From positions 1 through 14,657 of the forward strand of contig JAGVWJ010000049.1 in NCBI GenBank assembly GCA_018304385.1: a stretch of DNA of 14,657 nucleotides, read 5' to 3'. The notes beneath the pieces were generated by a model. The model saw only the letters and a list, made by a program, of their open reading frames with translations, had not been told where the DNA came from and made no database searches. Shown piece after piece: positions 1-14,657 of the stretch (position 1 is the stretch's first letter; each line of letters starts with the position of its first letter). This DNA is from Candidatus Micrarchaeota archaeon (GTDB lineage: Archaea > Micrarchaeota > Micrarchaeia > Anstonellales > Bilamarchaeaceae). A program made the position numbers and the translations under genes.

Positions 1-762
1 AATAATAGGAAGACCTTGGCCTTTTACCGCCTTGCTACCCATACCAAAAACAACTAATGCTTTTCCTTTTTTATCTAATGTAGCATGGGTATAACCGCAA
101 CTGGCAATCCAGGGATAGAAAAATCGTTCGCTTTCTTTTCCTTCGAAATCTGAAAGACTAGTGCTATGTCTATGCTCTTCACCAATAACTGGCAATATCC
201 AAAGCGCTGCTAGTGGTTCCACTCCTTTTCTTTTAGTATAAGCAAAAGCATCTTTTGAAAAGGCAGATCGATAAGCAGATTTTATAGCATCAACTAATGT
301 TTCAATATTTTCAACTGGTTCATCCAATAAGGCAATAATCTTTGTCTTAGTAACACCAACACCGCGAGACTCGCCTTCTAAAGATGGTCTAATCGCAATA
401 ACCTGGCCGCGGAATGTGCGCTCGATTTCTGCAATTGCTTCCATTTCTTGATCAGAGAATTTTAATCCTTCATCAAATAATAAACGAACGTTGTTAACAT
501 ATGCTACTCGATCTTTTATCTCATTAATAGCTTTCATTCTTTCTCTTATGCCGTCTTGCCCACCTTCAAATCTTTCAAAAAAACCGCTTGCTAATGCAAA
601 TCCAGGTGGCGGCATTGCTAAACCACACTCTACAAGTGGTTGCGCATTATCAAATACGCCATTTATTTTTCCACCTAGTTTACCATGACCAAATACGTTT
701 AATGAAGTTATAGCCCCACCTAATTGTGGTTTTTCTATAAGTCGTCTTTGTAAAACTGGCAT
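1..762 (-). CDS. PEP/pyruvate-binding (PPDK_N, ATP-grasp) domain protein, PEP synthase/pyruvate phosphate dikinase N-domain-like; 3' end runs off the window
   Basis: Absent from the ORF track; translated by hand. ATG at 762-760 (in-frame TAA at 780-778 upstream), open to position 1. Contains FGHGKLGGKING, GLAMPPPGFAL, VIAIRPS, AIKSAYRSAFSKDAFAYTKRKG and RFFYPWIASCGY...VFGMGSKAV. These match the GGK, PxGF, RSS, YAS-FS-AxxY and FYP-G-GLG pattern of bacterial PEP/pyruvate-binding domain proteins. Confidence 0.8.
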   Translation of the reverse strand, partial: MPVLQRRLIEKPQLGGAITSLNVFGHGKLGGKINGVFDNAQPLVECGLAMPPPGFALASGFFERFEGGQDGIRERMKAINEIKDRVAYVNNVRLLFDEGLKFSDQEMEAIAEIERTFRGQVIAIRPSLEGESRGVGVTKTKIIALLDEPVENIETLVDAIKSAYRSAFSKDAFAYTKRKGVEPLAALWILPVIGEEHRHSTSLSDFEGKESERFFYPWIASCGYTHATLDKKGKALVVFGMGSKAVKGQGLPII

Positions 763-792
763 AAATATCTGTTCATCTTATGTATAAGAGTG

Positions 793-800
793 TTTATAAA
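793..800 (-). promoter_or_regulatory. Putative TATA box for the PPDK_N-like gene
   Basis: TTTATAAA (palindromic) 31-38 nt upstream of the ATG at 762, in the short intergenic gap. Confidence 0.45.
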
Positions 801-814
801 TGTACTTGTATGTG

Positions 815-1879
815 CTAACATTCCTGATAACTCGCTTTAAAAACCTCAAACAATTTCGGGCAAATACCCGCATTCTTTTGGAAGGTGTTGAGTGTATCGT
901 CATCATAGCTTGTTCCGCCCATTATTTCACTGCATTTTTCAGTGCCAAAATGATCGTAGTTGCCATGCTCGCCAAAGTGATGCATTAGCTCGTGAACTGT
1001 AGATGCTGCAAGGAAATTATATCTGTCTTTTGCGTAAAAAGAATTTAAAGATTCATTATCATTGCACATGTAATAGCCAAAATCTTCTCTGAAAATGCAT
1101 GCTGTTCCACGTCTATTTCTACATTCTCCGTCTATTGACATATTACTTATATGCACTGGATTTTTTGGATCGCTAGAATCATATCCACAACTAGAATACA
1201 TGTGCTTCCAATCCATAAGTCCACCATAAACCCTATTCTTTTTGTCTCCTTGGGGGTCTCTATACCTATTACAAGATCCTGCAAGATCAATGCCAATTGC
1301 ATAGCCACCATAAGTTGCAGAGGTATCGTCTGCCCTTAAAAATATAAAAAATTCGGGTGGATCTTCGCTTTCGTACCTTAAAAATATAAAAAATTCGGGT
1401 GGATCTTCGCTTTCGTATATTTTTTTCAGAATATCGTTCGTTACAATAGTTCTGCTTATTATAATAGAATTCTTTATTCCGCTATAAGAAACCCTTCTTG
1501 TCTTCATTAGCTTCATTTCAACATCTGCTTTATCAACTAGAATATTGTTTGTTACTCGAAAAAATTCATTAAGTTCGCTATCGCTTGGAGAAAAAGAATC
1601 AGTATCAACAATTATATCAACTTTTATATCGCGATTTATCGAACTTTTCTTTAAAGTAGTATCTTGTTTTGCTGGCGGTGGTTCGGCAGTTGGTTTAGTC
1701 TTTATTGGTTGCGGCGTTGGAGATGGATCTGGAACCTTGGCTGGGGGTTGTGAAGTTGGTTCAGGCTTTTTTGTTGGCTCTTTAGATGGTTCAGATTTTT
1801 TTTCTACTTCTTGTTCTTTTGTTTCGCTAACGCAACCGAAAAATAGAATTATCATAATAAACAAAACAAAAATTCTCAA
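815..1879 (-). CDS. Putative surface lipoprotein with Pro/Lys/Thr-rich linker and metzincin-like zinc metalloprotease domain
   Basis: TTG start preceded by GGTGAG. Hydrophobic N-terminus ending LFFG-C (lipobox-like), then a P/K/E/T-rich spacer (KKPEPTSQPPAKVPDPSPTPQP). Motif TVHELMHHFGEHGNYDH is followed by CSEIMG (candidate Met-turn). Many Cys residues. Confidence 0.7.
   Translation of the reverse strand: MRIFVLFIMIILFFGCVSETKEQEVEKKSEPSKEPTKKPEPTSQPPAKVPDPSPTPQPIKTKPTAEPPPAKQDTTLKKSSINRDIKVDIIVDTDSFSPSDSELNEFFRVTNNILVDKADVEMKLMKTRRVSYSGIKNSIIISRTIVTNDILKKIYESEDPPEFFIFLRYESEDPPEFFIFLRADDTSATYGGYAIGIDLAGSCNRYRDPQGDKKNRVYGGLMDWKHMYSSCGYDSSDPKNPVHISNMSIDGECRNRRGTACIFREDFGYYMCNDNESLNSFYAKDRYNFLAASTVHELMHHFGEHGNYDHFGTEKCSEIMGGTSYDDDTLNTFQKNAGICPKLFEVFKASYQEC
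1334..1417. repeat. Perfect 42-bp tandem duplication (2 copies, in frame)
   Basis: ccttaaaaatataaaaaattcgggtggatcttcgctttcgta at 1334-1375 and 1376-1417; encodes YESEDPPEFFIFLR twice. Confidence 0.97.
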
Positions 1880-2526
1880 AATACGCTCACCAATTCCTGT
1901 AAAAATTTCTTAGGATCTTCTGCATTAACAAATGCGCTTGCGAGAAGCACACCTTTGCTTCCTTGCTCTAATGCACGCTTAACATCATCTTTATTGCTAA
2001 TGCCTGCGCCACAAAGTACAATTATTTTATCATTAACCTGCTCTAAGTGTTTTACTGTTTCTTTTATGAGATCTGGTCTAGCATTTGATACGCTCACACC
2101 TGTGCCAATAAGTTCTGGTGGCTCAACTGCAATATAAGTAGGAACAAAATGCGCAATCTTCTCTGCCTCTTCTAATGTTGCTGCGCAAACCAAACTTTCT
2201 AATGCACTAGCATGTAGCTTATCTGAAACAAGTTTAACTGTTTCTAATGGTAATTTTTTCTCAGAATGATTAACAATAGATCCCTTTGCTTTTATCGCCT
2301 TAAGTGCTTCTGCTGGTAAATCACCAGTATGTTGGCCAGGTTCGCTTGCGTCGCAATGCTGGCTAAATACCTCGCTAAAGCGGCCTGCAGCATCTTTTAA
2401 ATGAATAGAAGGTGGGCAAACAACAATACGCATACCTGATTCTTCAACTACCTCGCTTGCCAGATCAACAAAATAAAGTGCTTTCTCTAAGCTACGCTCA
2501 TATGTCTTTAGATTAAGAACTATCAT
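1876..2526 (-). CDS. tpiA: Triosephosphate isomerase, archaeal short type
   Basis: NLKTY (catalytic Lys), SQH (catalytic His), AVEPPELIGTG (catalytic Glu and loop 6), GAGI; 216 aa as in archaeal TIM. Confidence 0.97.
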   Translation of the reverse strand: MIVLNLKTYERSLEKALYFVDLASEVVEESGMRIVVCPPSIHLKDAAGRFSEVFSQHCDASEPGQHTGDLPAEALKAIKAKGSIVNHSEKKLPLETVKLVSDKLHASALESLVCAATLEEAEKIAHFVPTYIAVEPPELIGTGVSVSNARPDLIKETVKHLEQVNDKIIVLCGAGISNKDDVKRALEQGSKGVLLASAFVNAEDPKKFLQELVSVF

Positions 2527-2638
2527 AATAGTGTATTAGAGGGAAAGAAATAAAAGATAACGTGTGCATAAATAAAATAAAACTGTTAGTTTGATTAACG
2601 AGGCAGTTTTGTGGAATCCACTTATTGTGGGTTTTGGG

Positions 2639-2659
2639 GTGCCTTTTCCTAAAAGGCAC
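2639..2659 (+). other. 9-bp hairpin in the 5' leader of tRNA-Ser
   Basis: GTGCCTTTT-CCT-AAAAGGCAC, ending 2 nt before tRNA G1 (2662). Confidence 0.7.
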
Positions 2660-2699
2660 AAGCTGAGGTCGCATAACCTGGTAGTGCGTCGGTCTTGAA

Positions 2700-2759
2700 G
2701 CATATGGACGCAAACGCTTCCTGTGGTTCGAGGACGAATCTCGAACCGGTTAGCAAGCA
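2700..2759 (+). other. tRNA-Ser intron at canonical position 37/38
   Basis: Bulge-helix-bulge (BHB): central helix CTTG(2694-2697)/CAAG(2754-2757) is perfect, with bulges AA|G and CA|A. Internal 8-bp hairpin GGTTCGAG/CTCGAACC (2725-2747). Confidence 0.88.
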
Positions 2760-2789
2760 AACCGATCCCTCGTGGATTGTAGGTTCAAA

Positions 2790-2943
2790 GCCATAGCCCC
2801 TTTCTTCGAAAGAAAGGGGCTGAGGCTTTCACCCCCAAAGAAGCGGTGATAAGCCTTAACAGCATTTTATTTTACGCTGTTTTGGGGTGAAGCCCTTTTT
2901 ACATAAGAAAAAGATAAGATTGTAAATGGGCTTCAACTGATAA
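2790..2943 (+). other. tRNA-Ser T-loop intron (59/60), 154 nt, multi-hairpin
   Basis: Central helix TTCA(2784-2787)/TGAT(2938-2941), bulges AA|G and AA|T, closed by the true T stem. Excision restores TTCAAAT. Confidence 0.82.
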
Positions 2944-2957
2944 TCCTGCCCTCAGCG

Positions 2958-2969
2958 TTTTTTTATTTT
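2958..2969 (+). terminator. Oligo-T archaeal terminator after tRNA-Ser
   Basis: TTTTTTTATTTT immediately after the discriminator G2957. Confidence 0.6.
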
Positions 2970-2975
2970 GCCTCA

Positions 2976-3039
2976 TATTCAAAACCAACAAAGTATTTCC
3001 GATTTCTTTAATTGGCCTTATTGAGTTTGGTTTTGAATA
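2976..3039. repeat. 13-bp perfect inverted repeat with 38-nt spacer
   Basis: TATTCAAAACCAA (2976-2988) / TTGGTTTTGAATA (3027-3039). Confidence 0.75.
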
Positions 3040-3042
3040 GAT

Positions 3043-3067
3043 CGAGCCGACTTTTTAAGTTGGCTCG
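3043..3067. repeat. Near-perfect palindrome/hairpin upstream of the GGDEF promoter
   Basis: CGAGCCGACTT-TTT-AAGTTGGCTCG, 11-bp stem with one G-T pair. Confidence 0.75.
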
Positions 3068-3084
3068 GGATAAAGATACATATA

Positions 3085-3092
3085 TTTATAAA
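3085..3092 (+). promoter_or_regulatory. TATA box of the GAF-GGDEF gene (leaderless transcript likely)
   Basis: TTTATAAA(TA) at -32 to -25 from ATG 3117; no GGTGA-type RBS in between. Confidence 0.65.
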
Positions 3093-3116
3093 TAGTTTTG
3101 TAGAAAATAGTTAATT

Positions 3117-4316
3117 ATGTCAACCCATGCAGAAATAAAAACAGGCAGCCAAAGGCATACAGGACCTGCAGCAATTAAAGAATTTGGTACAATGCCAACA
3201 CTAGCTGAAGGCATAGCTGGCTATAAAAGGGCTGTTGGGCAGGCTGTTGTCCACAGGTTTATAGAGGCGCAGGGTAACATTGGTAGCATGGCTAGATTTC
3301 TTGCTAAGTTGTTTGAAAATTTTGATGGGGTAAGATCTGTTTCATTATATAACGCCAGGAATAGCCATCTCGAACATAGTATAACCCTAACAAGAGAAAA
3401 TGGAAGGATTTATCCACAAACAAGTAATGCGCATGCATTATTCGATGAAAATGATCCCTGTATTCGCGCGTATAGAGAACTTGGTATAATAATTACTGAT
3501 GGAATAAATGGCAAGACATACAAATTTGATCTTAACCCGGAAAACACTAGGTTTAACGAACTTCTTGGCCCTTTTGATGGAGTGGTACATGCAGTTTTCC
3601 CGTTATATTCTGGCAGCGGGCAGAGAAAACACGGGGTTTTATCAATTCAGGGAATAAATATACAAATAAACGGAAGTAATGCGCAGGGCGCTGTAGCCAT
3701 ACAAGAAAGTGCCGATGCATTGGTCTCTATTGCTCGATTAGTATCTTACATAATAGATAGTGGATACGATACGCTTACTGGATTACCAAGAGAAAAACAA
3801 TTTGCTATCGTGATGGATGACATATTAGCAAATTATAAAGAAGGAATGAATTGTTCATTCATACGATTTGATATTGATCATTTAAAGGCAATAAATGACC
3901 TAGATGGACATGACGCAGGGGACATGGCATTACAGCGCTTTAGTGAGGTTGTTTTCAATTCTTTAAGAATAGAAGCAAGAACCGATGATATGATACCTGA
4001 TATACTATTTAGATTAGGAGGAGGCGCTGATGAATTCATAGCTGTTTTGCCTGGTGTTGATGTGGCAACAGCAGCAGTAATAGCTGATAGAGTAAGACAA
4101 GAGGTCCAAAAACACACGATAGTTACATGCAGTTGTGGGGTTAGCGATTTGAAAGCAATGATAGGAGAAAACCAGGTAGAAACTGAAGATGGGATTAGAA
4201 GAATCAAAAACATAACAGATGAAGCAGCATATGCTGCAAAGAATCATGGAAGAAATACGGTATTCTCAATAAGAGTAGAAGGTGCTGGTTTAGTTGCTGT
4301 TCGATACACACAATAG
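3117..4316 (+). CDS. GGDEF-domain (diguanylate cyclase-like) protein with N-terminal GAF-like sensor
   Basis: DTLTGL, RFDIDHLKAINDLDGHDAGDMAL, RLGGGADEFIAVL, VTCSCGVS and AYAAKNHGRN give the GGDEF domain architecture. The N-terminal part has a GAF-like pattern (HAVFPLY...GVLSI). Confidence 0.88.
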   Translation: MSTHAEIKTGSQRHTGPAAIKEFGTMPTLAEGIAGYKRAVGQAVVHRFIEAQGNIGSMARFLAKLFENFDGVRSVSLYNARNSHLEHSITLTRENGRIYPQTSNAHALFDENDPCIRAYRELGIIITDGINGKTYKFDLNPENTRFNELLGPFDGVVHAVFPLYSGSGQRKHGVLSIQGINIQINGSNAQGAVAIQESADALVSIARLVSYIIDSGYDTLTGLPREKQFAIVMDDILANYKEGMNCSFIRFDIDHLKAINDLDGHDAGDMALQRFSEVVFNSLRIEARTDDMIPDILFRLGGGADEFIAVLPGVDVATAAVIADRVRQEVQKHTIVTCSCGVSDLKAMIGENQVETEDGIRRIKNITDEAAYAAKNHGRNTVFSIRVEGAGLVAVRYTQ

Positions 4317-4329
4317 TTTATTATTTTTA

Positions 4330-4337
4330 TTTAACTA
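4330..4337 (+). promoter_or_regulatory. Putative TATA box for tRNA-Thr
   Basis: TTTAACTA at -29 to -22 from G1 (4359); an imperfect match to TTTAWATA. Confidence 0.4.
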
Positions 4338-4377
4338 ATTCTATCTAGCATGTGTTATGCCCCTGTAGCTCAGCGGT

Positions 4378-4389
4378 TATTATAGCTAA
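4378..4389 (+). other. tRNA-Thr D-loop intron (20/21), 12 nt
   Basis: TATTATAGCTAA. BHB-like: central AGCG/AGCT (3 pairs plus G-A), bulges GT|T and AA|A. Cutting after the second bulge nucleotide restores the canonical GCTCAGCGGTAGAGC. Confidence 0.8.
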
Positions 4390-4428
4390 AGAGCGCTCGC
4401 TTCGTAAGCGAGATGTCGCGGGTTCAAA

Positions 4429-4483
4429 AGCCTTGAATCGCTGGCAAAAAAATCGATTCAAGATTTGCCAGCAAGGCTGTCAA
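4429..4483 (+). other. tRNA-Thr T-loop intron (59/60), 55 nt
   Basis: Inner stems GCCTT/AAGGC and GCTGGCAAA/TTTGCCAGC; relaxed central helix TTCA/TGTC; bulges AA|A and AA|T. Confidence 0.82.
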
Positions 4484-4521
4484 TCCCTCCAGGGGCTTTT
4501 AACATTTATTATTAAGATGAA

Positions 4522-4620
4522 TGAGGTCGCCCAGATTTGAACTAGGATCACCGACGCCCAAGGCCGGCAGTCTGCCAGGATAGCATCTCTTCTAAATGAA
4601 GAAAATTAGCCCACGACCCC
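4522..4620 (-). tRNA. tRNA-Pro(UGG) with a 26-nt D-arm intron (best placed at 15/16)
   Basis: Minus strand: acceptor GGGGTCG/CGACCTC plus A73, anticodon arm CCGGC-CT-TGG-GC-GTCGG, T arm CCTAG-TTCAAAT-CTGGG. The D arm is interrupted by an AT-rich hairpin. The D stem is weak (GGCT/GACT). Confidence 0.9.
4580..4605 (-). other. tRNA-Pro intron, 26 nt
   Basis: TTTTCTTCATTTAGAAGAGATGCTAT. Inner stem TTTCTTC/GAAGAGA, central GGCT/TGCT, bulges AA|T and AT|C. The exact register is inferred because GCTA is repeated at both junctions. Confidence 0.7.
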
Positions 4621-4645
4621 AATAATTTTATTTTGTAACAAAGAC

Positions 4646-4660
4646 TATATAAAATTAGTT
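4646..4660 (-). promoter_or_regulatory. BRE-TATA promoter of tRNA-Pro
   Basis: Minus strand AACTAAT-TTTATATA. The consensus TTTATATA lies at -33 to -26 from G1 (4620), and the BRE-like ACTAAT overlaps the GNAT stop codon. Confidence 0.8.
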
Positions 4661-5056
4661 ATTCGCCCTTCTTACAAGAAGATATACTCCTTTTGCCTCA
4701 TTATGCCTTGCTAAAACAAAGCCAAAACGTGCGTAAATATTATTCGCAGGATTAGTATCTTTAACTTTTAAATAAACAGGCTTACCAACTGACACAAACT
4801 TTTTTATTACGCTCTCGATTAGTCCTGTGCCAATACCAATGCCACGAACGTTTCCTTCAACGCCAAAGCCTTTTATTACTGCTTTATCTCCATAATAAGC
4901 ATAATGCACAAAACCAACTATCTGGCCATACATATCTGCAATAATAATTCTGTCGCCATGATCAATCTTAATATTAGAATTTGGAAAAACTCGACACATT
5001 AATTTTAGCATTTCTGAATATTCATTGTCTTTTAACAAGCGGATGCTGATAGCCAT
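4655..5056 (-). CDS. GNAT family N-acetyltransferase
   Basis: GFGVEGNVRGIGIGTGL is the acetyl-CoA binding motif A (RxxGxG); NPANNIYARFGF is motif B. Start placed at ATG 5056, just after the upstream stop; the ORF track extends to 5083. Confidence 0.88.
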   Translation of the reverse strand: MAISIRLLKDNEYSEMLKLMCRVFPNSNIKIDHGDRIIIADMYGQIVGFVHYAYYGDKAVIKGFGVEGNVRGIGIGTGLIESVIKKFVSVGKPVYLKVKDTNPANNIYARFGFVLARHNEAKGVYLLVRRANN

Positions 5057-5060
5057 TATT

Positions 5061-5693
5061 TCAAACCGTAATGTATTCAACATATGTATTTTTATTTCTT
5101 ATGGTAAGGTCGCATAGTTTATTGTTATTTGCTGCTGGCACCTTGATTAGTTCAGTTCTGCCAACTTTAGCAGCTCCTTCGTATTCGTGCACATGACCAC
5201 ATAAAATAGCGAGCGGTTGTTTTTCTTCCACAATACGCTTAATGCTGCTACTACCTATGCGCTTGCCACGCACCTCATCAAAATAGCCATAGGGTGGGCA
5301 GTGGGTAATCAACAATGTATTATTATCTATTTTCAATTTACTCATTCTTTCATAAATCTCGCTTTCGCTATACTCATTAGGTGTGCCAAATGGTGTGATA
5401 TTACTATAACCAAAGCCAACTACATTTAACCCATCACGCAACTCAACACGCTTTTCATGAATATAATTATCTTTTGTTTTAAGAAAATCCATTACTGCTT
5501 GCGGTTCGTTATTACCCGGAACTAAAAAGCAATTAGGGAACGCAACGATAACATCTTCTGCAAAGCTAACGCTGTGGTTTGTTATATCCCCGCAGATAAA
5601 AACATAATCGAATTTATTTTTCTTATAATAAGATTTCAACTTTTCTAGCATTATTTCGTCATCATGAATATCTGAAAAAACAAGAATTTTCAT
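5061..5693 (-). CDS. Metallophosphoesterase (calcineurin-like, Icc-related)
   Basis: SDIH, CGDIT, PGNNE, THCPP and CGHVHE motifs in order. Start at ATG 5693 (MKILVFSD); alternative start at 5720. Confidence 0.92.
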   Translation of the reverse strand: MKILVFSDIHDDEIMLEKLKSYYKKNKFDYVFICGDITNHSVSFAEDVIVAFPNCFLVPGNNEPQAVMDFLKTKDNYIHEKRVELRDGLNVVGFGYSNITPFGTPNEYSESEIYERMSKLKIDNNTLLITHCPPYGYFDEVRGKRIGSSSIKRIVEEKQPLAILCGHVHEYEGAAKVGRTELIKVPAANNNKLCDLTIRNKNTYVEYITV

Positions 5694-5736
5694 AATATCT
5701 GCCGTGGGCTTATAGCTCATTGCTCAATCGCCATCT

Positions 5737-6576
5737 CTATTCCTCGGCCCCTCGATCCGCCGGTCGTTCCACTGCTTTATTCTTCTTATATTGTTCCATT
5801 ACCTCATTATAGCGCTTTTCCAAATCTTTTTTGAGATCTTCGGCAATAAACCTCTTAGTAAATGCATCTGCCTTTGCTGCGAGCGTAATCTTATTTGCTA
5901 AAGCACGTGCAATCTTGCCACGAACTACTTTCGGCGAGCTTGAGATGTAGACGTGTTGGAATATTATACCGTGTTTTGGTGGATCAATTCTCTTATTCTT
6001 TAAATGCTTAAACAATGCCTTTTCTGCTCCAAGCACTTGTATTGTACTTGCTGGAAGCAGAGAAAGCTTTGAAAGCGAACCAACATGAGAAATAAGTTTT
6101 GCAGCAATAGCTGCACCAGCCACTGTAGATATATTCGGACATATCTCCTGACACAACTCTTCTTGATATTTTTCATATTCTGAGATAAGATTATCTAGAT
6201 TAACGATCTCCTTAGCTAGGCTTTTACACTTTTCTAGATCGTTATCATTAATATCCGCGCCTAGACTTTTACTTACAAGTTCCATAAGCTCGCTTGCTTT
6301 TTTCACACCAACGATTTTTTCTATTGGCTGTCTATCCCCTTTCTTATCAAAAACAGAAACAAACTGTGCAAACTTCGCTTTATCATCAAGCTTAAGCTCT
6401 GGAAAATAAACTGCATACCATTCCTCTAAGCGCTCGCCTAATGCATTCTTAACTCCAGTGAGCTCATCTATGCTGCGCTGAACATTTGCAATGAGCATGT
6501 CCCTGCTTTGAAGTGCTTCGTGCACTGCTTCTCTCGTTTTCCTTATAAATGACTCTCTCTTAGAACTAGGATTCAT
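5737..6576 (-). CDS. nop5: Box C/D sRNP core protein Nop5 (Nop56/58), short form
   Basis: ERLEEWYAVYFPEL, LPASTIQVLGAEKALF, PPKHGIIFQH and RGKIARALANKITLAAKADAF are Nop coiled-coil and Nop-domain signatures. Confidence 0.95.
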   Translation of the reverse strand: MNPSSKRESFIRKTREAVHEALQSRDMLIANVQRSIDELTGVKNALGERLEEWYAVYFPELKLDDKAKFAQFVSVFDKKGDRQPIEKIVGVKKASELMELVSKSLGADINDNDLEKCKSLAKEIVNLDNLISEYEKYQEELCQEICPNISTVAGAAIAAKLISHVGSLSKLSLLPASTIQVLGAEKALFKHLKNKRIDPPKHGIIFQHVYISSSPKVVRGKIARALANKITLAAKADAFTKRFIAEDLKKDLEKRYNEVMEQYKKNKAVERPADRGAEE

Positions 6577-6598
6577 AAGAGATATCTATCTGCAAATG

Positions 6599-6609
6599 TT
6601 TTTAATTAT
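6599..6609. promoter_or_regulatory. Putative shared bidirectional TATA element between nop5 and the divergent gene
   Basis: TTTTTAATTAT lies about 23-33 nt from both ATG 6576 (minus) and ATG 6629 (plus). Confidence 0.45.
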
Positions 6610-6628
6610 GCAACAACAAATTCTATCT

Positions 6629-7114
6629 ATGGTTGATATTGAAAAGCTTACAAAAGACACTATAAACAAAGGTGGCATACTGTCTATATTATATTTTGAT
6701 CTTCATTCAAAAGATAAAGATAAACTGCAGGCTCTGGCTACTAGTTTTATTGATAGCATACTAAAACAAGATGGAGTGGTTACTGCATATGGAGAGATAG
6801 AAGAACCACTAGAGCAGGATGGCATGTTCTCCACTTCTATAGAAGTGAAAGTGCTTACCAAAGATTTCCTTTCTTTGATAAACATCTGCTCTATATTCAA
6901 TCCAATAACAGTTGAGATTCTGAGACCAAATGAGGTAAAAATAACGCTTGATAAGGCGCACGAACTATTGATGAGCGTTGCAACAAATTGGTTTAATATA
7001 AAGAGATATATCACAGAAAAGGTATCGAGCAAGGAAGATATTGAACATATAAAGAAATATTTAGAAAATAGAGAATTAATAGGAAAACAGTTATTGGAAA
7101 AGAAAGGTGAATAG
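6629..7114 (+). CDS. Conserved archaeal hypothetical protein, abutting the KaiC-like gene
   Basis: Clean ORF with a FSTSIEV...FNPITVEILRP core; its stop TAG directly precedes the next ATG. Start 6629 is preferred from promoter spacing; 6596 and 6608 are alternatives. Confidence 0.75.
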   Translation: MVDIEKLTKDTINKGGILSILYFDLHSKDKDKLQALATSFIDSILKQDGVVTAYGEIEEPLEQDGMFSTSIEVKVLTKDFLSLINICSIFNPITVEILRPNEVKITLDKAHELLMSVATNWFNIKRYITEKVSSKEDIEHIKKYLENRELIGKQLLEKKGE

Positions 7115-7813
7115 ATGGGCCAGGATTTTATCAAAAGCGGTATTATCGGTTTAGATGATGTGTTAGGTAGTGGGTTCCTTAAAGGATCTATTTGCTCTCT
7201 ATCCGGCCCAACCGGCTCTGGAAAGAGCACTTTTGCAATGCAATTTCTTGTAAATGGTGCATTAAAAGCAAAAGAACCAGGTCTTTATATTTCAATAGAA
7301 GAAAGCAAACAATCCATGTATTTTCATATGTCTGGATATACGTGGGATTTAGAAAAAATGGAAAAGAACAGGCAGTTTGTATTTTTAGATTATCCTATAT
7401 TTGAGGTCGATCAATTCCTCACACAAAATAGCGCAATTCAAGAGATCATATCAAAAATAGGTATTAAACGTGTTGTTATAGATTCGATTATGCCAGTAGC
7501 GATATATTTTAAGGAAGAGAATGAGAGAAAAAAGGGATTTTTGAAGCTAATAGAAAATATTAGAAGATGGGGAACAACAACACTTATTATTTCTGAGGAT
7601 ACGCCTGCAACCACGCAAGATGTTTTGCCAGATACCCATTATGGCATAGAGACATTTACAGATGGATGGCTGCATTTATATTATTTATATTCGCCAAAGG
7701 AGCGCGAACGTACTCGCGCTATAGAGGTACTAAAGATGAAAGGAGTGCATCATTCTTCTAAGATATTCCCGTGCGAAATAACTGATGATGGATTTGTTAT
7801 ACATTCAAAATAA
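7115..7813 (+). CDS. Single-domain KaiC/RAD55-type RecA-superfamily ATPase
   Basis: Walker A GPTGSGKS, SIEES, Walker B VVIDS, TDG, RAIEVLKMKG; RBS GGTGA upstream. Confidence 0.92.
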   Translation: MGQDFIKSGIIGLDDVLGSGFLKGSICSLSGPTGSGKSTFAMQFLVNGALKAKEPGLYISIEESKQSMYFHMSGYTWDLEKMEKNRQFVFLDYPIFEVDQFLTQNSAIQEIISKIGIKRVVIDSIMPVAIYFKEENERKKGFLKLIENIRRWGTTTLIISEDTPATTQDVLPDTHYGIETFTDGWLHLYYLYSPKERERTRAIEVLKMKGVHHSSKIFPCEITDDGFVIHSK

Positions 7814-7821
7814 GCATTGTA

Positions 7822-9123
7822 TTATTCTATGAAAACTATTTCTCTTTGTATCTCGCATGTTGCACGCGGCCCAAGCACAGGATCAACATAAACATCTGCC
7901 TCTATCCTCATGCCATATCTCCCAGGAATATAGATACCAGGTTCATCGCTTGAAAGTGTTCCTGGCAATACTAATCTAGGGTCATCCCCTTTTGAAGTGC
8001 TTGTTCCAGTTATCGATACCCCTTCGCCATGTACAATTGTTGTAATACTATGGCCAGTTGAATGCATGTTGTAATCTGGATACCCTGCAGCAATTATAAC
8101 CTCCCGAGCTGCTCTATCTATAAGTTGTGGAACTAATGGATCGCCTCTTGCAAACATTTCTTGCATTTTTATTAGAGCTGCATCTCTTGCCCTTACTAAT
8201 GTACTAAATGCCATTGCGTATTCTACTGGAAATTCTGCTTTGCTTCCTACAAACCCCATCCAACCAAGATCAGCATATATTGCATTCGGATCTTTGTCTT
8301 TAGCCCATATATCTATAAGAACAAGGTCTCCTTTTTGTATTTCTTTTAGTCGTTCGCCGCCTTCTATTGGCGCATAATGTGGATCTGCGCCATTCTCACG
8401 AACAGCAACTATTGGAGGGTGGTCGCATTCTAAATTATTTTGTTCGAAACGAGTCACTAGAAAGTGTTGAACGTCGTATTCTGTAACCTTTCTACCAGCT
8501 CTTATTTCTTGACCTATAAATGCAAATGCTTCCTTTACAAATCTGGTTAGCAATTCAGCAGCTCTAACATGACTGGCTAATTCTTGCTCAGTTAGAACAC
8601 ATACCTGCGCTTGAAGTAAATCGCCAGAGCTTACGATTTCAGCGCTGCTCATTATTCTTAGCCAATCCAACATTGCAGCAGGTAGTATTGAGGTTCCTCC
8701 AACAAACATTCCGGGCGTATGTTCTGCGGCTATTCTCCTACAACCTTCAGTTGCTCTTCTTATTGCATCATCTCTTTCATCTTTTGTGCTTATTGCGATT
8801 ACCTCTCCAAGTGGTTCAAAATAATCATAATGTTTCCTTTCTAATTTACTACATATTAATATCGGTGGCTTGTCTGGATAGATTACGGCCAATACCATCG
8901 CTGTTAGGTTTTGTACTCCAGTTGCTCGTAATAATCTAAGTGCTGCTGGATTCAGAATATGTGGAGGGTTATGAAATGTAAACCATGCATCTATTCCATT
9001 ATCGCGCATGTGTTTAGCTGCTGCTGGTCGAAGTAAAGAATCAGTTACAACGTCCTTACCTCTAAATGCATCCTTGCCACTGCCTATCCCACTACCTCTT
9101 GTAACATGTGCTCGCGCTGTCAA
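7822..9123 (-). CDS. M24 family Xaa-Pro aminopeptidase-like peptidase
   Basis: Metal ligands in order: IDIWAK (D), YADL (D), HSTGHS (H), DEPGIY (E), RIEAD (E); also GADPHY. TTG start with GGTGA RBS at 9128-9132. Confidence 0.9.
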   Translation of the reverse strand: MTARAHVTRGSGIGSGKDAFRGKDVVTDSLLRPAAAKHMRDNGIDAWFTFHNPPHILNPAALRLLRATGVQNLTAMVLAVIYPDKPPILICSKLERKHYDYFEPLGEVIAISTKDERDDAIRRATEGCRRIAAEHTPGMFVGGTSILPAAMLDWLRIMSSAEIVSSGDLLQAQVCVLTEQELASHVRAAELLTRFVKEAFAFIGQEIRAGRKVTEYDVQHFLVTRFEQNNLECDHPPIVAVRENGADPHYAPIEGGERLKEIQKGDLVLIDIWAKDKDPNAIYADLGWMGFVGSKAEFPVEYAMAFSTLVRARDAALIKMQEMFARGDPLVPQLIDRAAREVIIAAGYPDYNMHSTGHSITTIVHGEGVSITGTSTSKGDDPRLVLPGTLSSDEPGIYIPGRYGMRIEADVYVDPVLGPRATCEIQREIVFIE

Positions 9124-9183
9124 ATTTTCACCTTTAGTCGTTTATTTATAAAAATAGTTGTGATAGATAGTATAAGGAAATAT

Positions 9184-9693
9184 TTATAAAGATTCGATTA
9201 TGGCGAATGTGAATTTTTCCATTTCCTTTTTGAAGTCTTTGGCATAAACTAAAATTCGCTTTCCGAGCTTTGAGAATTTTTTAACGCTTTCCTGCTTTGC
9301 ATCTTCAATAATTAAATCATAAACATCGCTTATTTCTCCAGTATAATCATTTTTTATTTTTCCAACTAGTAAGCGATTTTTATCCTTGAATTTCTTCAAA
9401 TCAAGTTTTGTTGGTAAAATAATTACTACACGCGCATTTATACCAAGCAAGCGTTCAATAAATTCTTCTCGATCACACTCGACTTGTACATGCATAAGAT
9501 AGGTTAGTTTATCATATACATCAAAATTAGTTTCAATGCCACGCTGCGCATCTAAATCAATAATATGTAAAAGTTCGAATCCTTGATCTTTCAATTTTTT
9601 TGCTGTTTCTATTGGTTTGCCAACTAATCTTAACGTACCAACTTTTTCGAAAAATTGTTTATCTTTCAAATAAACTAACTTTGCTTTAAGCAT
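9184..9693 (-). CDS. Degenerate, truncated HisA-like barrel protein
   Basis: PIETAKKLKDQGFELLHIIDLDA and NFDVYDKL...VQV match the HisA N-half, but the GGG motif is replaced by ECD and the protein is only about 169 aa. Start at ATG 9693, after the antiporter stop. Confidence 0.7.
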   Translation of the reverse strand: MLKAKLVYLKDKQFFEKVGTLRLVGKPIETAKKLKDQGFELLHIIDLDAQRGIETNFDVYDKLTYLMHVQVECDREEFIERLLGINARVVIILPTKLDLKKFKDKNRLLVGKIKNDYTGEISDVYDLIIEDAKQESVKKFSKLGKRILVYAKDFKKEMEKFTFAIIESL

Positions 9694-9697
9694 TTTT

Positions 9698-10978
9698 TCA
9701 CTTTTTTCTCTTAGCAATTAAATAATTCATAACAAATGGTGGGAATATTGTAGTAAGCAAAGCCATTGCAGCAATTATCGCATATTCGCTTTGCGAAATG
9801 GCAGCACGCTGCAGACCAAGCGAAGCAACAATTAACGCAACCTCTGCGCGCGGTGCCATGCCAAAACCAATTATTGCAGACTCAATTCTATTCATGCCAC
9901 TTGCTAATGCACCAACACCACAACCAATTATTTTTGTGAGGATTGCGATTATACTTATGATTATTATTGGCCAGGCAAATGCAATAATGTCATTTAGATT
10001 AACAAGAAGGCCTAGAGATATAAAAAATATTGGCACGAAAATAGTTTCTAATGGATAAACCTTATCCTCCAGTTCCTTAATATGTTTACTATTTGTTAAA
10101 AGCAAACCTGCAATAAATGCTCCAACAATTGCAGATAGTCCAATAACTTCAGCTATGTATGAATACAAATGCAAAAGCACAAGCGCAATCAGGAAATTAG
10201 CATTTGTCATCTCTAATTTATCTAAAACATTTTTAACAAACCAATTGCCCGCAATGATACCACCGCCTAAAAACACAATTGTTGCACCAGCAATCTTTGC
10301 CAGAGGCAATGCTGACTCTGCGAGATTTAAATCAGCAGGTAAGTTGAGCACAAATGATAGCACAAGCAAACCAAGAATATCATCAATTACTGCAGCGCCA
10401 ATAATAACTTGTGCAAATTTCTCACTCATCAAACCTGCTTCTTTTATTATTGCAACGCTTACGCCAACGCTCGTAGCAGTAAGTGCTGCTCCAAGAAACA
10501 TAGAATACACAAAATTTCCGCCAGTTAATGTTGCATAAGCAAATCCACCAGCAAATGGAACAACAACACCAAGCATTGCAACTATAGCATTTTCCTTTGA
10601 AAATATAGATTTGAAATGAGAGTGTAAGCCAACTCTAAAGAGCAGGAAAATTGAGCCTAGCTGCGCAAATAGATAAATTAGTTGTTCATCCCTAAAAATC
10701 TTAAACCCTAGGATACTTTCGCTCATTATTACGCCAACTAAGAGCAGTAGGATTGCGCTTGGCTGCTTTGAATAAATAACACCTATTTCTGCAAGAACAG
10801 CAATAAGCAATAGAAAGCTTATTTCGAAAAAGGCATATTTATGCAACTCTACTTCGCCAAAAATCGAGCGGCGCAAAATAGAAATTAAAAGGATAATAAA
10901 TAATACAAAAAATGCAGTAAGCACAATAGGGTAAACCTTTTTTGCTAATCTATCAAAGGATTTTTGAGAAACTGGCAT
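9698..10978 (-). CDS. CPA2 cation:proton antiporter (NapA/KefB family)
   Basis: Highly hydrophobic; ATSVGVSV, GAAVIDDILGL (DD motif), PIFFISLGL, MAPRAEVALIV. The DD pair suggests a NapA-like protein. Confidence 0.92.
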   Translation of the reverse strand: MPVSQKSFDRLAKKVYPIVLTAFFVLFIILLISILRRSIFGEVELHKYAFFEISFLLLIAVLAEIGVIYSKQPSAILLLLVGVIMSESILGFKIFRDEQLIYLFAQLGSIFLLFRVGLHSHFKSIFSKENAIVAMLGVVVPFAGGFAYATLTGGNFVYSMFLGAALTATSVGVSVAIIKEAGLMSEKFAQVIIGAAVIDDILGLLVLSFVLNLPADLNLAESALPLAKIAGATIVFLGGGIIAGNWFVKNVLDKLEMTNANFLIALVLLHLYSYIAEVIGLSAIVGAFIAGLLLTNSKHIKELEDKVYPLETIFVPIFFISLGLLVNLNDIIAFAWPIIIISIIAILTKIIGCGVGALASGMNRIESAIIGFGMAPRAEVALIVASLGLQRAAISQSEYAIIAAMALLTTIFPPFVMNYLIAKRKK

Positions 10979-10987
10979 TTTATAACC

Positions 10988-11614
10988 TTAACTCTCTAAT
11001 AAAAGTTTAGCTTTTGACCTGACTTCTTTATATGCATCACCCTGAAATACAGGTAAATTAGCAATTATTGTTAAAACCTTCTTATTGGATTTAACCTTAG
11101 GATTTTCTAACAAGGCCTGCGCTAACGAAGGTTGTATATACTCAGAAAGACTGTTAGCGATCTTAAGCAGTACCTCGTCTGGGGCATCGGAATCTTTTGC
11201 CAATGAAGGTAAAAATGCATATTGATAAGTCCAATCATCTTTGTTCTTAAGTTTACTAAAGAAATCATCTGAAAAGAGATATTCATCTCTACTGTCGAAA
11301 TCGTACATGGAAATACTAGGCAGATCACTATGTATCCAACCAATTTTTTCTTTGTTCTTTATTACAATTAAACTACGATAAAAACAACCAGACTCGCAAT
11401 CTTGTGGCGCACCGTAACTAACCTTGAAAACCTTGACATTTTTATCTGGGATATCCAAGATAAACGTTGGTGGTTGTGTATTAGAAATATTAAAACTTTT
11501 TACAAAATCTTCTATAGAATAACCTAGGTATTTATCATCTTTTGTATCTTGCTTCTGTACACAACCCGTGATTAGAAGCCCAACAAAAAACAACAAAATA
11601 AAATTTTTCATCAA
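10988..11614 (-). CDS. Hypothetical lipoprotein
   Basis: Signal ending LLITG-C; GGTGA RBS; QDCESGC motif; helical C-terminal region (LAKDSDAPDEVLLKIAN...ALLENP). Confidence 0.7.
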   Translation of the reverse strand: MMKNFILLFFVGLLITGCVQKQDTKDDKYLGYSIEDFVKSFNISNTQPPTFILDIPDKNVKVFKVSYGAPQDCESGCFYRSLIVIKNKEKIGWIHSDLPSISMYDFDSRDEYLFSDDFFSKLKNKDDWTYQYAFLPSLAKDSDAPDEVLLKIANSLSEYIQPSLAQALLENPKVKSNKKVLTIIANLPVFQGDAYKEVRSKAKLLLES

Positions 11615-12843
11615 ATCACCAACCTCTTAATTATTTCTTCCAAAGTTAGTTTCTCCTCTTTTCCAGTCTTCATATCTCTTAACGTAAATTTGCCTTCTTT
11701 TACTTCACGTTCGCCAATAACTATTAGAAATGGAATTGCTAATGAATTAACATATTCCAATTGCTTTCTTAGATTGCGTTCGTTTAGATCAGTTTCGCAA
11801 GCAACCCAGGATGCCCGCAACTTATTAGCAATATCTGCTGCATTAGAAAAAAATTCTGGTTTTACATTTGCAACAAATACCTTGGTGTAAGTTTTTTCAT
11901 TTTCTTTTTTTCTTTCTTTAATTAATGTAATTATGCGTTCAATACCTAGGCTTATGCCAACTGCATAGTCTGGTTGACCGTAAACTGCAAGTAGATTATC
12001 ATATCTGCCTCCACCAGCAACACTGCCAATTTCAGTGCTGGCACGAATTTCAAATACAGGACCTGTATAATATCCTAAGCCACGAACTAGTTCAAGATCA
12101 ACCTCTACTTCGAAATCGCAACCATTTATGATTTGCTCAAGCTCGCTAGCCCCTTCATCGCTCAAAGAGCGCGCAACCTCCAGTTTCTTTTTGTTATTCC
12201 CTTTTGTATCAAATATTTCAAATAGTTTTTTTGTTTTCTCGCTGCTTATTACATCTGCCATCTCTTTTTTTACTACCTCTTCTCCGACTTTATCTATTTT
12301 ATCAAGCAAGCGAAATATTGCATCTTTTTTATTTTCAATTCCAAGCTTTGTCGCCAGCGCATCAAGTATCTTGCGATTGTTAACTAGAATTCTTAATTGC
12401 TTAAAACCTAGTGCATCTAGCACTTCTCTTGCAGCAGTTAGCAACTCTGCTTCAGCACGCATGCCTTTTGTTCCAACTATATCTATATCTGCCTGCCAAA
12501 ACTCTCGAAATCGCCCTTTTTGTGGCTCTTCCTTACGCCATACTGGTGCAATTGCATATCGCTTAAATGGCTTGGAAAACGCATTATTCGCTGCAACACG
12601 CGCAAGCGGCACTGTTAAATCAAATCTTAGGCCTAGCTCATTATCATCAAATCTGAATATTTGCTTATCAATTTCTTCACCTGCTTTTGCACGAAGCGTT
12701 GCTAGATATTCTAGGGCTGGAGTTTCAATCGGAACAAAACCATACCTGCGATAGACGTTCTCAACTATCCCCAGCACTTCTCGTCGCAGTATCGCATCTT
12801 CTGGCAGTATATCACGCATACCTTTTGGCGCTAATTTTGTCAT
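11611..12843 (-). CDS. hisS: Histidyl-tRNA synthetase
   Basis: PKGMRD, LRFDLTVPLAR, motif 2 WRKEEPQKGRFREFWQADIDIVG, RGLGYYTG, GGGRYD, motif 3 GISLGIERI, and a C-terminal anticodon-binding domain. Confidence 0.97.
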   Translation of the reverse strand: MTKLAPKGMRDILPEDAILRREVLGIVENVYRRYGFVPIETPALEYLATLRAKAGEEIDKQIFRFDDNELGLRFDLTVPLARVAANNAFSKPFKRYAIAPVWRKEEPQKGRFREFWQADIDIVGTKGMRAEAELLTAAREVLDALGFKQLRILVNNRKILDALATKLGIENKKDAIFRLLDKIDKVGEEVVKKEMADVISSEKTKKLFEIFDTKGNNKKKLEVARSLSDEGASELEQIINGCDFEVEVDLELVRGLGYYTGPVFEIRASTEIGSVAGGGRYDNLLAVYGQPDYAVGISLGIERIITLIKERKKENEKTYTKVFVANVKPEFFSNAADIANKLRASWVACETDLNERNLRKQLEYVNSLAIPFLIVIGEREVKEGKFTLRDMKTGKEEKLTLEEIIKRLVI

Positions 12844-13409
12844 TTTCTTCTCCTCTTTAATTCGTTTAATACTTCACTGAAATTTATATTTCTATTCTCT
12901 AAGTAAACTAATATGAAATATAATAAATCTGCGGCCTCCCACTTAATATCGCTTTTCTTTTTAGCTTCTATTAGCTCTTCAAGTTCTTCTCTGAGTTTCG
13001 CTATTATGGCATTTCTATCATTAACTATTTTTGAAGTGTAAGAATTGCCTTTTGGGTATTTCTTTCTTTCGGATATTACTTCTATAAGCTCACTTAGTAT
13101 GTTCTTCTCTTCCTTAAAGCAGGAATAACTATTAGTGTGGCAGGCTGAACCAAGTGGCTTAACTTTAACGAGCAATGCATCGCTGTCACAATCTTCAGAA
13201 ACTGAAATTACTTTCATTGTGTTGCCACTAATCGCTCCTTTTTTCATTAATTTGTTTTTGCTTCTGCTGTAGCGCCATACGAATCCTGTTTTCTTCATTT
13301 TTTCTATAGATTCTTTATTCCCGTAGAATAGGGATAACACTGCCAAGCTATCAGCATCTTGTACTATCATCGGAATTACCCCATCTTTATCAAATTTCAC
13401 GTATCTCAA
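12840..13409 (-). CDS. hisIE: Bifunctional phosphoribosyl-AMP cyclohydrolase / phosphoribosyl-ATP pyrophosphatase
   Basis: HisI: [18 protein letters not shown]. HisE: [25 protein letters not shown]. Start TTG 13409 or GTG 13400. Confidence 0.93.
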
Positions 13410-14148
13410 CTCCTTTTTGTTTTAGGTATTTCTTCAAATCTGGAATTTGAATTTTCTTATAGTGAAATAAACTAGCTGCCAATGCAGCAGAAACATTTGT
13501 TTTTTTGAAAACATTTAGGAAATCTTGTCTTTTTCCTGCACCGCCAGATGCAATAACTGGAATAGAAACTAACCGAGCTATTGTTTTGTTAAGTTCTAGA
13601 TCATATCCTCTCTTTGTTCCATCGTAATCGATACTTGTGAGTAAAATCTCACCTGCACCAAGTTTGGCTACTCTCTTTGCCCAGCTTAATGCATTTAGAT
13701 TGGTTTTCTTTTTACCGCCATAAATATAAACGTCCCACCTACCCCCATTTTTCTTTGCATCTATGGCAATAACAATTGCTTGTGAACCGAATCTTTTGGC
13801 TGCTTGTGATATTAACTTAGGATTTTCAATAGCAGCAGTATTTATTGAAACTTTATCTGCGCCAGCTTTCAGCAGTTTTTCTATATCTTGTGTAGTGCGA
13901 ATCCCACCACCTATCGTAAAAGGAATGAAAATCTCTTCTGCAACCTTGCTTGCAAGTTCAACAATTGTTTTCCTACGTTCTGCGCTTGCGGTTATATCAA
14001 GAAAAACAATTTCATCTGCACCTTCTTCATAGTAGTGCTTTGCTAGAGTTACTGCATCACCAGCATCTCGAAGCTTTTCAAAATTCCTACCCTTAACAAC
14101 ACGACCGTTTTTAACATCTAAACAAGGAATTATTCTTTTTGTTAACAT
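13390..14148 (-). CDS. hisF: Imidazole glycerol phosphate synthase, cyclase subunit
   Basis: [70 protein letters not shown]. Start placed at ATG 14148. Confidence 0.97.
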
Positions 14149-14149
14149 A

Positions 14150-14657
14150 TCAATCAACCAACTGAAAACGAAACCCATTTTTTAATGAAATTTTTTTCTC
14201 AAAGAATGCCCTGCCAATTATCACGCCATCTATGCCAGACTTCTTAAGTTCCATGATATCAAATACATCACGTATGCCACCGGCAGCAATTATACTGGCT
14301 TTGCATTTTCTTTTTACTTTGGTAAGAAGTTCTATATTTGGGCCACCAAATGTACCGTCCCTTTCAGTATCTGTTACTATTATTTCTTCTAAACCATCTG
14401 TAAAGCTAGCCAGTTCAATATCTGATCCTCTAGTCCAACCAGCATAACCAATTTTCCCGTTTTTAAAATCTAAGGAACCAATTATTCTTCCGCGATATTG
14501 TTTTTTTATTTTATCAGCAAGTTCTGGGAATCTTATAAGCAGCGTACTTAGAACAACTTTTTTTACTCCAGAACTAAGCAAATCCTTAATTCTTTGTTCA
14601 TCACGTATGCCGCCACCTACCTGAATAGGAAATTGCTTTGCAAGCTGCTTGATTATT
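14150..14657 (-). CDS. hisA: ProFAR isomerase HisA, 5' end outside the window
   Basis: The frame stays open past the ORF-track start to the window edge ([19 protein letters not shown]...). Also [32 protein letters not shown]. Confidence 0.93.

Follow-up and report, generated by a model that had tools for sequence, protein, structure and literature searches.

In Candidatus Micrarchaeum acidiphilum ARMAN-2, the closest described system, 56% of the tRNA genes are disrupted, and an epsilon2-type splicing endonuclease cleaves relaxed motifs broadly (PMC3239211). Structures of this enzyme are available as 4FZ2 and 9W2K (PMC12397907). Here we describe a gene from the same phylum, at positions 2662 to 2957 of a stretch of 14,657 nucleotides (nt) that we call the window (contig JAGVWJ010000049.1, positions 1 to 14,657 of the forward strand; assembly GCA_018304385.1, a Candidatus Micrarchaeota archaeon of the family Bilamarchaeaceae). 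Judged from comparative sequence analysis, it very probably is a functional tRNA-Ser(UGA), the sole one detectable in its genome, spliced at positions 37/38 and 59/60 by an epsilon2 endonuclease and joined by RtcB. The lineage agrees with a preliminary description of the window, made from its letters only, which had named Micrarchaeota as one of two groups in which non-canonical tRNA introns are concentrated. The genome shares with ARMAN-2 such introns, including those in T-loops and up to three per gene, relaxed bulge-helix-bulge (BHB) motifs, a full-length epsilon2 enzyme and the escape of its tRNA genes from standard finders. Unlike in ARMAN-2, with its 56%, nearly all tRNA genes are interrupted here, only 4 of about 46 expected ones reaching the Rfam cut-off, and the introns are much longer, at 150-200 nt in T-loops. 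The gene in the window also differs in having a second anticodon cassette, a feature mentioned in neither PMC3239211 nor PMC12397907.

Anticodon pieces are swapped, giving synonymous tRNAs, in the split and tri-split tRNAs of Caldivirga maquilingensis and the split tRNA-Glu of Nanoarchaeum equitans (Fujishima et al., 2009, as summarized in passages of PMC4033280). What the gene described here would share with these is the principle of one body that can be combined with alternative anticodon segments differing at position 34, by way of a BHB endonuclease and a ligase. In split tRNAs the pieces are separate genes that act in trans, whereas both cassettes of the present gene lie in cis within 296 nt, and use of the second one is putative. 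The split or tri-split class was therefore rejected for a locus that holds both cassettes in one gene.

Large-scale transposition of tRNA introns is attributed to the Thermoproteales (Fujishima et al., 2010, as cited in a passage of PMC4033280). The second intron of our gene, located in the T-loop, is comparable in that its paralogues occupy several tRNA species and positions in the source genome and its congeners, with gain and loss among close relatives; it differs in belonging to another lineage and to a family that is long, modular and strongly structured. The archaeal tRNA-Trp intron, found in Haloferax and others, encodes a C/D-box guide RNA. Intron 2 is likewise long and structured, but it interrupts the T-loop rather than position 37/38, and it is without conserved C/D boxes or an Rfam match.

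The interrupted tRNA-Ser(UGA) gene

The gene covers 296 nt of the plus strand, from G1 at 2662 to the discriminator G73 at 2957. Introns make up 214 of the 296 nt (72%), and the three exons of 38, 30 and 14 nt give an 82-nt class II cloverleaf when spliced. The features of the locus are as follows.

2639..2661 (+): copy of a dispersed hairpin element (9-bp stem, loop CCT) followed by AA, abutting G1 of the tRNA
2662..2692 (+): exon 1 proper, tRNA nucleotides 1-30 (acceptor 5' strand, D-arm and anticodon-stem 5' strand to G30), from ARAGORN and the orthologues
2693..2699 (+): cassette 1, nucleotides 31-37, TCTTGAA with anticodon UGA, continuous with exon 1 and invariant in five genes that have both cassettes
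2700..2759 (+): intron 1 by the route to UGA, 60 nt, position 37/38, with an hBH-type bulge-helix-bulge
2693..2738 (+): putative alternative 30/31 intron, 46 nt
2727..2738 (+): 3' end of the alternative 30/31 intron (TTCGAG, GACG and AA), from likeness to stand-alone Ser(CGA) genes
2739..2745 (+): cassette 2, a second copy of nucleotides 31-37, TCTCGAA with anticodon CGA, homologous to the 7-nt micro-exon of Ser(CGA)
2746..2759 (+): 14-nt segment homologous to the Ser(CGA) 37/38 intron, its 5' part complementary to the D-loop (2674-2681)
2760..2789 (+): exon 2, nucleotides 38-59 (anticodon-stem 3' strand, 14-nt variable arm, T-stem 5' strand and T-loop TTCAAA)
2790..2943 (+): intron 2, 154 nt, position 59/60, absent in the orthologue of the congener G002
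2944..2957 (+): exon 3, nucleotides 60-73 (T60, T-stem 3' strand, acceptor 3' strand and G73)
2958..2964 (+): run of seven Ts directly 3' of the discriminator, from the sequence

The hand-spliced 82-mer is recognized by ARAGORN as tRNA-Ser(tga), with stems of 7 bp (acceptor), 4 bp (D), 5 bp (anticodon) and 5 bp (T). Class II serine features, namely the 14-nt variable arm, G73 and the anticodon UGA, are present in it and likewise in the orthologues, and the spliced tRNA retains the conserved tertiary nucleotides U8, G18G19, U33, A37, G53-C61, T54T55C56 and A58. The CCA end is absent from the gene sequence, and the run of seven Ts is likely to be an archaeal terminator. The preliminary description had proposed a 296-nt tRNA-Ser(UGA) with two introns, and the ARAGORN result together with orthologues that lack the introns confirms this; its exon total of 82 nt, intron lengths of 60 and 154 nt and intron share of 72% proved exact. 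With slashes at the junctions, the expected spliced sequences are ...CTTGAA/AACCGA... in the anticodon loop, or GGTCTTGAA/AACCGATCC in longer form, and ...TTCAAA/TCCTGC... in the T-loop, or GGTTCAAA/TCCTGCC.

Both junctions are fixed because intron-less alleles exist in relatives. BLAST searches with the gene of the source genome (G000), first of 40 relatives and subsequently of 99 genomes from its family, recovered an orthologous gene in most of them. In G002, of the same genus and syntenic, the T-loop of this gene is uninterrupted. Similarly, the anticodon loop is uninterrupted in the orthologues of G016, G005, G007 and G009, and the unbroken sequence in these four and in G054 is CTTGAAAACCG. 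Fully intron-free genes occur in G054, G064, G091 and G094. A low covariance score of the spliced sequence had been regarded in the preliminary description as telling against the gene; the intron-free G054 gene, to which the spliced G000 sequence is identical at 79/82 positions (96%), scores 60.4 bits on Rfam RF00005, for which the cut-off is 29. Two of the three differences form a compensatory change of the anticodon-stem pair 27-43, and the third turns a T-stem G.U into G-C. Further, the exons are 95-100% conserved in at least five genomes while the introns turn over.

In the archaeal bulge-helix-bulge, exon and intron each contribute to the central helix the four nucleotides that come before their last two, and the cut falls after the second nucleotide of each 3-nt bulge. 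The central helix of intron 1 is formed by exon CTTG (nucleotides 32-35) and CAAG (2754-2757), which pair at all four positions, with bulges AA/G and CA/A; this motif adjoins the anticodon stem and lacks an inner helix. For intron 2, TTCA (nucleotides 54-57) faces TGAT (2938-2941) with three of four positions paired and bulges AA/G and AA/T. The same helix is predicted from the alignment of the intron 2 family, in which its register shifts with the splice position in the 58/59 copies. The orthologous intron 2 of locus L323 has a perfect helix (TTCA with TGAA, 4/4), and it is common for T-loop introns of the source genome to have a helix in which three of four positions pair.

The precursor transcript would be about 296 nt long. 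We infer that the endonuclease cleaves it: an epsilon2-type enzyme would cut at 37/38, where the anticodon stem is followed by the 4-bp helix of CTTG and CAAG, and at 59/60, where the T-stem is followed by the helix with three of four pairs. RtcB would then ligate the three exons into the 82-nt class II tRNA, and CCA would be added later. As is characteristic of tRNA genes with BHB introns, the locus has a cloverleaf and a BHB or relaxed variant at each boundary, and endonuclease and ligase are both encoded in the genome. The EndA protein of 399 aa, encoded on contig C28, matches PDB 4FZ2, the ARMAN-2 epsilon2 enzyme, over its full length (E 1e-129), and its nearest homologues are all in Candidatus Micrarchaeota assemblies. 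RtcB is encoded as well (339 bits). Beside the three-unit epsilon2 enzyme, the genome encodes an additional EndA-like protein of 161 aa and single-unit alpha type (C53:12962-13210, minus strand; locus L201:1465-1950); the solved archaeal splicing endonucleases nearest to it are 2GJW and 1R0V (E 1.6e-11).

The assembly comprises 1.53 Mb in 65 contigs, is 89% complete and has about 37% G+C. The preliminary description had expected default scans to miss the gene, and indeed ARAGORN finds no tRNA and the full set of Rfam models finds nothing in the intact window; at permissive E-values, Rfam returns between 2600 and 3000 only chance hairpin matches to microRNA and small RNA families. Genome-wide, the Rfam cut-off is reached by four tRNAs where about 46 are expected, and ARAGORN reports two, or four if canonical introns are allowed. 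ARAGORN runs at lowered thresholds with long introns gave mostly noise and were left out of the inventory, and a search for anticodon stem, intron and stem, which returned about 900 matches per anticodon, was superseded as unspecific. The inventory is based on a purpose-written finder that takes T-arm and acceptor-stem pairing as its anchor and permits introns in three loops; this finder is blind to introns within stems or at the start of the T-loop, and the inventory is thus incomplete. It yields about 30 plausible interrupted tRNA genes in the source genome, and its output includes a Ser(GGA) gene with three introns, a Ser(GCU) gene without introns and the Ser(UGA) gene of the window. A further Ser(UGA) gene elsewhere in the genome had been raised as a point to check: neither BLAST to E 10 nor the custom finder detected a second UGA-like or CGA-like serine gene in the assembly. 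UCA is the commonest of the TCN serine codons (4865 occurrences in 795 long open reading frames), and therefore the UGA tRNA is indispensable.

Several points weigh against a functional tRNA-Ser(UGA) with these two introns. The splice motif of intron 2 is relaxed (hBH type), has a T.T next to the T-stem and is without an inner helix. Also, thermodynamic folding of the whole precursor yields neither the cloverleaf nor either BHB, and a second Ser(UGA) gene could formally still lie on DNA missing from the 89%-complete assembly.

A second anticodon cassette in intron 1

The 37/38 intron has the length of 60 nt and the site that the preliminary description gave it, but it is composite and holds a CGA cassette with splice signals of its own, which that description had missed. 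The layout is seen when the three congeneric genes are aligned with the serine genes of G015 and G016. In the source genome, exon 1 up to G30 is followed by TCTTGAA, 39 variable nt ending in GACGAA, TCTCGAA, 14 nt and exon 2. In comparison, stand-alone tRNA-Ser(CGA) genes (n=14, from several genera; loci L283-L295 and L063, in 14 Micrarchaeota genomes) consist of a 30/31 intron, a 7-nt micro-exon TCTCGAA and a 37/38 intron between the outer exons. Their short 30/31 intron is composed of an A, a hairpin with a covarying stem and then GACGAA; their 37/38 intron starts with CCGG and ends with (C/T/A)GAG plus two bases, and its start is complementary to the D-loop in a covarying pairing. The 30/31 junction is fixed because two more Ser(CGA) genes are without that intron and read TCGG-TCTCGAA. 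In the gene of the window, CAAG and CA in the 3' part of the 14-nt segment (2746-2759) form the shared 3' splice site.

Genomes with a stand-alone Ser(CGA) gene hold a separate Ser(UGA) gene too. Loci of the UGA/CGA type number one each in G000, G001 and G002 and two in G015 and G016. Synteny with the triose-phosphate isomerase (TIM) gene led to more genes with both cassettes, at L321/L322 (a Logan assembly) and L323 (GCA_023247545.1). The outgroup L326 has a plain Ser(CGA) gene at the corresponding TIM-tRNA-GGDEF locus, and the synteny in G015 is alike; therefore the gene with both cassettes is the positional orthologue of Ser(CGA). Its variable arm and acceptor stem resemble the Ser(UGA) genes of relatives, and this combination of a Ser(CGA) position with Ser(UGA)-like arms makes it look like a recombinant of the two paralogues. 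By homology, intron 1 is very probably a remnant or a still working part of the Ser(CGA) anticodon region of the family. No second gene with both cassettes was found among the nine other tRNA genes of the source genome that have anticodon-loop introns, and a metagenome pattern scan for both cassettes gave no Ser-type D-arm among the matches listed.

Conservation was evaluated in an alignment of five genes with both cassettes (G000, G001, G002, L321 and L323), in all of which cassette 1 and cassette 2 are invariant. In the source genome, the central helix at 30/31 pairs exon CGTC (2687-2690) with GACG, and the inner helix pairs cassette 1 with TTCGAG and reaches six pairs. The central helix is complete (4/4) in all five genes, CGTC facing GACG, GGCG or GATG, and its only changes are two G.U-compatible transitions. 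The three bases that precede it, which belong to the inner helix (GAG, AGG, AAG, AAG and ATG), are complementary to the CTT of cassette 1 in all but one gene. Further, the eight bases after cassette 2 pair with the D-loop at 6-8 of 8 positions, with U:A here versus C:G in other genera; 92.7% of the cells of this helix are paired, and two of its pairs have changes on both sides. When D-loop and central helices are taken together, 95% of the cells are paired, as against 12-43% with slid partners.

The left part of intron 1 is unalignable between species, and the G002 gene has a 47-nt insertion within the 14-nt segment. For the neighbouring GGDEF gene, the proteins of G000 and G002 are 53% identical and the third positions of identical residues match at 45%, so neutral sites are near saturation. 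Because invariance and pairing were kept while neutral sites approached saturation, the block around the CGA cassette would seem to be under selection. In the minimum-energy fold of the G000 precursor, the D-loop pairs with the intron, a short 30/31 helix forms and cassette 1 lies in a hairpin stem, and this architecture is matched by 4/6 stand-alone CGA precursors. Plain pair probabilities are near zero for the UGA as well as the CGA splice helices, miss the cloverleaf and favour neither route. At the shared 3' splice helix, G000, G002, L321 and L323 have CAAG, a perfect partner for CTTG that gives an internal C.A at C34 when set against cassette 2. CGAG, able to pair with either cassette, is kept only in G001, which TIM identity places as the most divergent of the five.

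We are inclined, with modest confidence, to think that tRNA-Ser(UGA) is the only product. The CGA cassette and its flanks would then be left over from recombination between Ser(UGA) and Ser(CGA), and they may aid folding or the recognition of the UGA intron, e.g. via the D-loop pairing, or represent a slowly decaying relic. The indispensable product is UGA, and four of the five genes have a 3' splice helix adapted to it (CAAG); the Ser(UGA)-like variable arm and acceptor stem suggest a recombinant origin. Also, the intron of the G042 gene (L315) lies between two identical copies of TCTTGAA, so a 7-mer duplication is possible without a second product. What fits less well is that cassette 2 is unpaired in the predicted folds and yet invariant, whereas the neighbouring intron has been fully replaced, and that pairing is preserved by every change in the two helices through which cassette 1 would be removed, something that a gene for UGA only does not demand. 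With synonymous sites near saturation between G000 and G002, it is also unlikely that there was simply no time for decay.

The splice position of the L315 Ser(UGA) gene (G042:C64) is itself ambiguous, from 30/31 to 37/38, and its arrangement looks like a 7-nt duplication at intron gain.

A more tentative reading, possible but on present evidence not the expected one, is that one gene gives rise to tRNA-Ser(UGA) and tRNA-Ser(CGA) via mutually exclusive folds, by alternative splicing in cis. In one fold, cassette 1 would pair with CAAG and the whole 60 nt would be excised, giving tRNA-Ser(UGA). In the other, CGTC would pair with GACG and cassette 1 with TTCGAG, and the 46-nt 30/31 intron (2693-2738) would be removed; cassette 2 would be joined to G30 and, with removal of the 14-nt 37/38 intron (2746-2759), the product would be tRNA-Ser(CGA). 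Its putative junctions are GTGCGTCGG/TCTCGAA/AACCGATCC, that is ...GCGTCGG/TCTCGAA/AACCGA.... Such a gene would stand in for two separate genes in this Micrarchaeota genus, in line with the single UGA/CGA locus in G000, G001 and G002, the three genomes of the genus that are searchable whole, and with its location where L326 and G015 have plain Ser(CGA). The layout is identical to that of the 14 stand-alone Ser(CGA) genes and the G000 fold architecture is that of four of the six stand-alone precursors. Cassette 2 and the 30/31, inner and D-loop helices are conserved in the genes with both cassettes, with neutral sites near saturation and the rest of the intron unalignable.

Codon reading gives arguments on both sides of such a double product. 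A tRNA with U34 usually reads UCG by wobble, and many archaea are without C34 isoacceptors. Reading of UCG by U34 would thus make Ser(CGA) dispensable. In the source genome, however, separate genes exist for other C34 isoacceptors (Gly CCC, Leu CAG, Lys CUU, Glu CUC, Pro CGG and Thr CGU), and UCG is as frequent as CCG, ACG and GCG, a parity that is weak evidence either way. In four of the five genes, an internal C.A interrupts the CTCG-CAAG helix on which the second splicing step would depend, and the derived A favours the route to UGA. The five genes moreover stem from one event, so few independent changes lie behind the conservation. Full-text search of the literature found no archaeal tRNA gene that is alternatively spliced into two anticodons, and tRNA alternative splicing in cis is accordingly without precedent in that search.

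The intron 2 family in T-loops

Paralogues of intron 2 occupy the T-loops of several other tRNA genes of the source genome, including Leu(UAA) on contig C33 and Arg(UCU), Ala(UGC) and another gene on contig C20; further ones are found in Leu genes of G001 and G002. The Leu(UAA) copy is 77% identical over 153 nt, and matches in the family range from 73 to 93% identity. The intron is built of a 5' module (about 2790-2850) and a 3' module (about 2877-2936), each of which is also found separately elsewhere. Five full-length copies give a consensus fold of four domains and 51 pairs, nine of them with compensatory changes. By homology, intron 2 is a copy of a structured family that has spread among the T-loops of several tRNAs. 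As in mobile intron families, homologues reside in tRNA genes of other identity, and the intron is present or absent among close relatives. At the Ser(UGA) T-loop site, G002 has no intron, G001 an unrelated one of 197 nt and L321 one of 26 nt, and other genera carry introns of 38-55 nt that belong to other families. In view of this varied occupancy, the site is a hot spot of intron gain and loss.

The 5' module also occurs at C51:14536-14588 (L075), where it is not recognizably inside a tRNA gene; the other strand carries a tRNA gene about 100 nt away.

The preliminary description had pointed to long known introns, such as that of tRNA-Trp, that carry functional RNA; in the long T-loop intron of this gene there is no sign of one, as no C/D box is conserved and no Rfam match reaches the cut-off. 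That intron 2 carries a functional small RNA of the tRNA-Trp intron kind, for example a C/D-box guide, is highly improbable. A near C box (GTGATAA, near 2856), two CTGA motifs and a weak SNORD25 match of 15 bits would point that way, as would the fold conserved with compensatory changes. The order and spacing of the motifs, however, are unlike C-D'-C'-D, the C-like motif and the terminal CTGA are not kept across the family alignment, and nothing in intron 2 attains the Rfam cut-off. A C/D-box small RNA was rejected on these grounds. Finally, a pseudogene or chance cloverleaf, to which the blank scans and the imperfect motif of intron 2 could be taken to point, is almost certainly the wrong reading of a gene that has a T-run as its likely terminator, is the sole candidate reader of an abundant codon (UCA), is 96% identical to an intact orthologue and has exons 95-100% conserved in at least five genomes amid introns that turn over.

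Neighbouring elements and significance

The hairpin that abuts the gene (2639-2661) reads GTGCCTTTT-CCT-AAAAGGCAC, then AA, and a 17-mer of it occurs at no fewer than six other places in the genome. Hairpin and AA also end the anticodon-loop introns of Asn(GUU) (C59:33574-33706) and Ser(GGA) (C3:10415-10617), right before their 3' splice sites; the 5' end of the serine tRNA may therefore be made by RNase P or by the splicing endonuclease. Just upstream of tRNA-Ser in L061 (G002), L066 (G007), L321 and L324, there is a mini-hairpin that has copies of the acceptor-stem halves on its two sides (GCTGAGG ... CCTCAGC) and is followed by a conserved TCA(T/C)ATT...TTC motif; G000 has no such arrangement. 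Integration or duplication events may have left it behind.

Downstream in the window lie two further tRNA genes that are interrupted. A tRNA-Thr(CGU) gene (4359-4497, plus strand) has a D-loop insert and a 55-nt T-loop intron and scores only 19.5 bits with Rfam. Its T-loop intron belongs to a family of the form AGCYTTGA...GCTGTCA, which is also present in the Ser(UGA) T-loop of G009, G056 and G042, all of other genera. A tRNA-Pro(UGG) gene (4522-4620, minus strand) has a D-loop intron. Between the tRNA genes, a GGDEF-domain protein is encoded at 3117-4316 on the plus strand (Pfam E 4e-20), and several relatives show synteny of this gene with TIM and tRNA-Ser. In archaea, genes of the diguanylate-cyclase type are uncommon.

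The gene is another case of a heavily interrupted Micrarchaeota tRNA that annotation misses; the new part is the nested CGA cassette with its conserved signals. As a consequence of such interruption, most tRNAs will seem to be missing from this assembly and probably from many related ones, and with them the sole reader of the commonest TCN codon. The proposed processing is directly testable: the sequences expected at the junctions are defined, and the enzyme of ARMAN-2 is one that has been purified and crystallized before. Should cassette 2 be used, the locus would provide the first example of two isoacceptors arising from a single tRNA gene by alternative splicing, and it would link intron-containing tRNAs to the split and tri-split tRNAs that swap anticodons in trans. 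Whether the cassette is used or not, the locus documents the merging of two paralogous tRNA genes.

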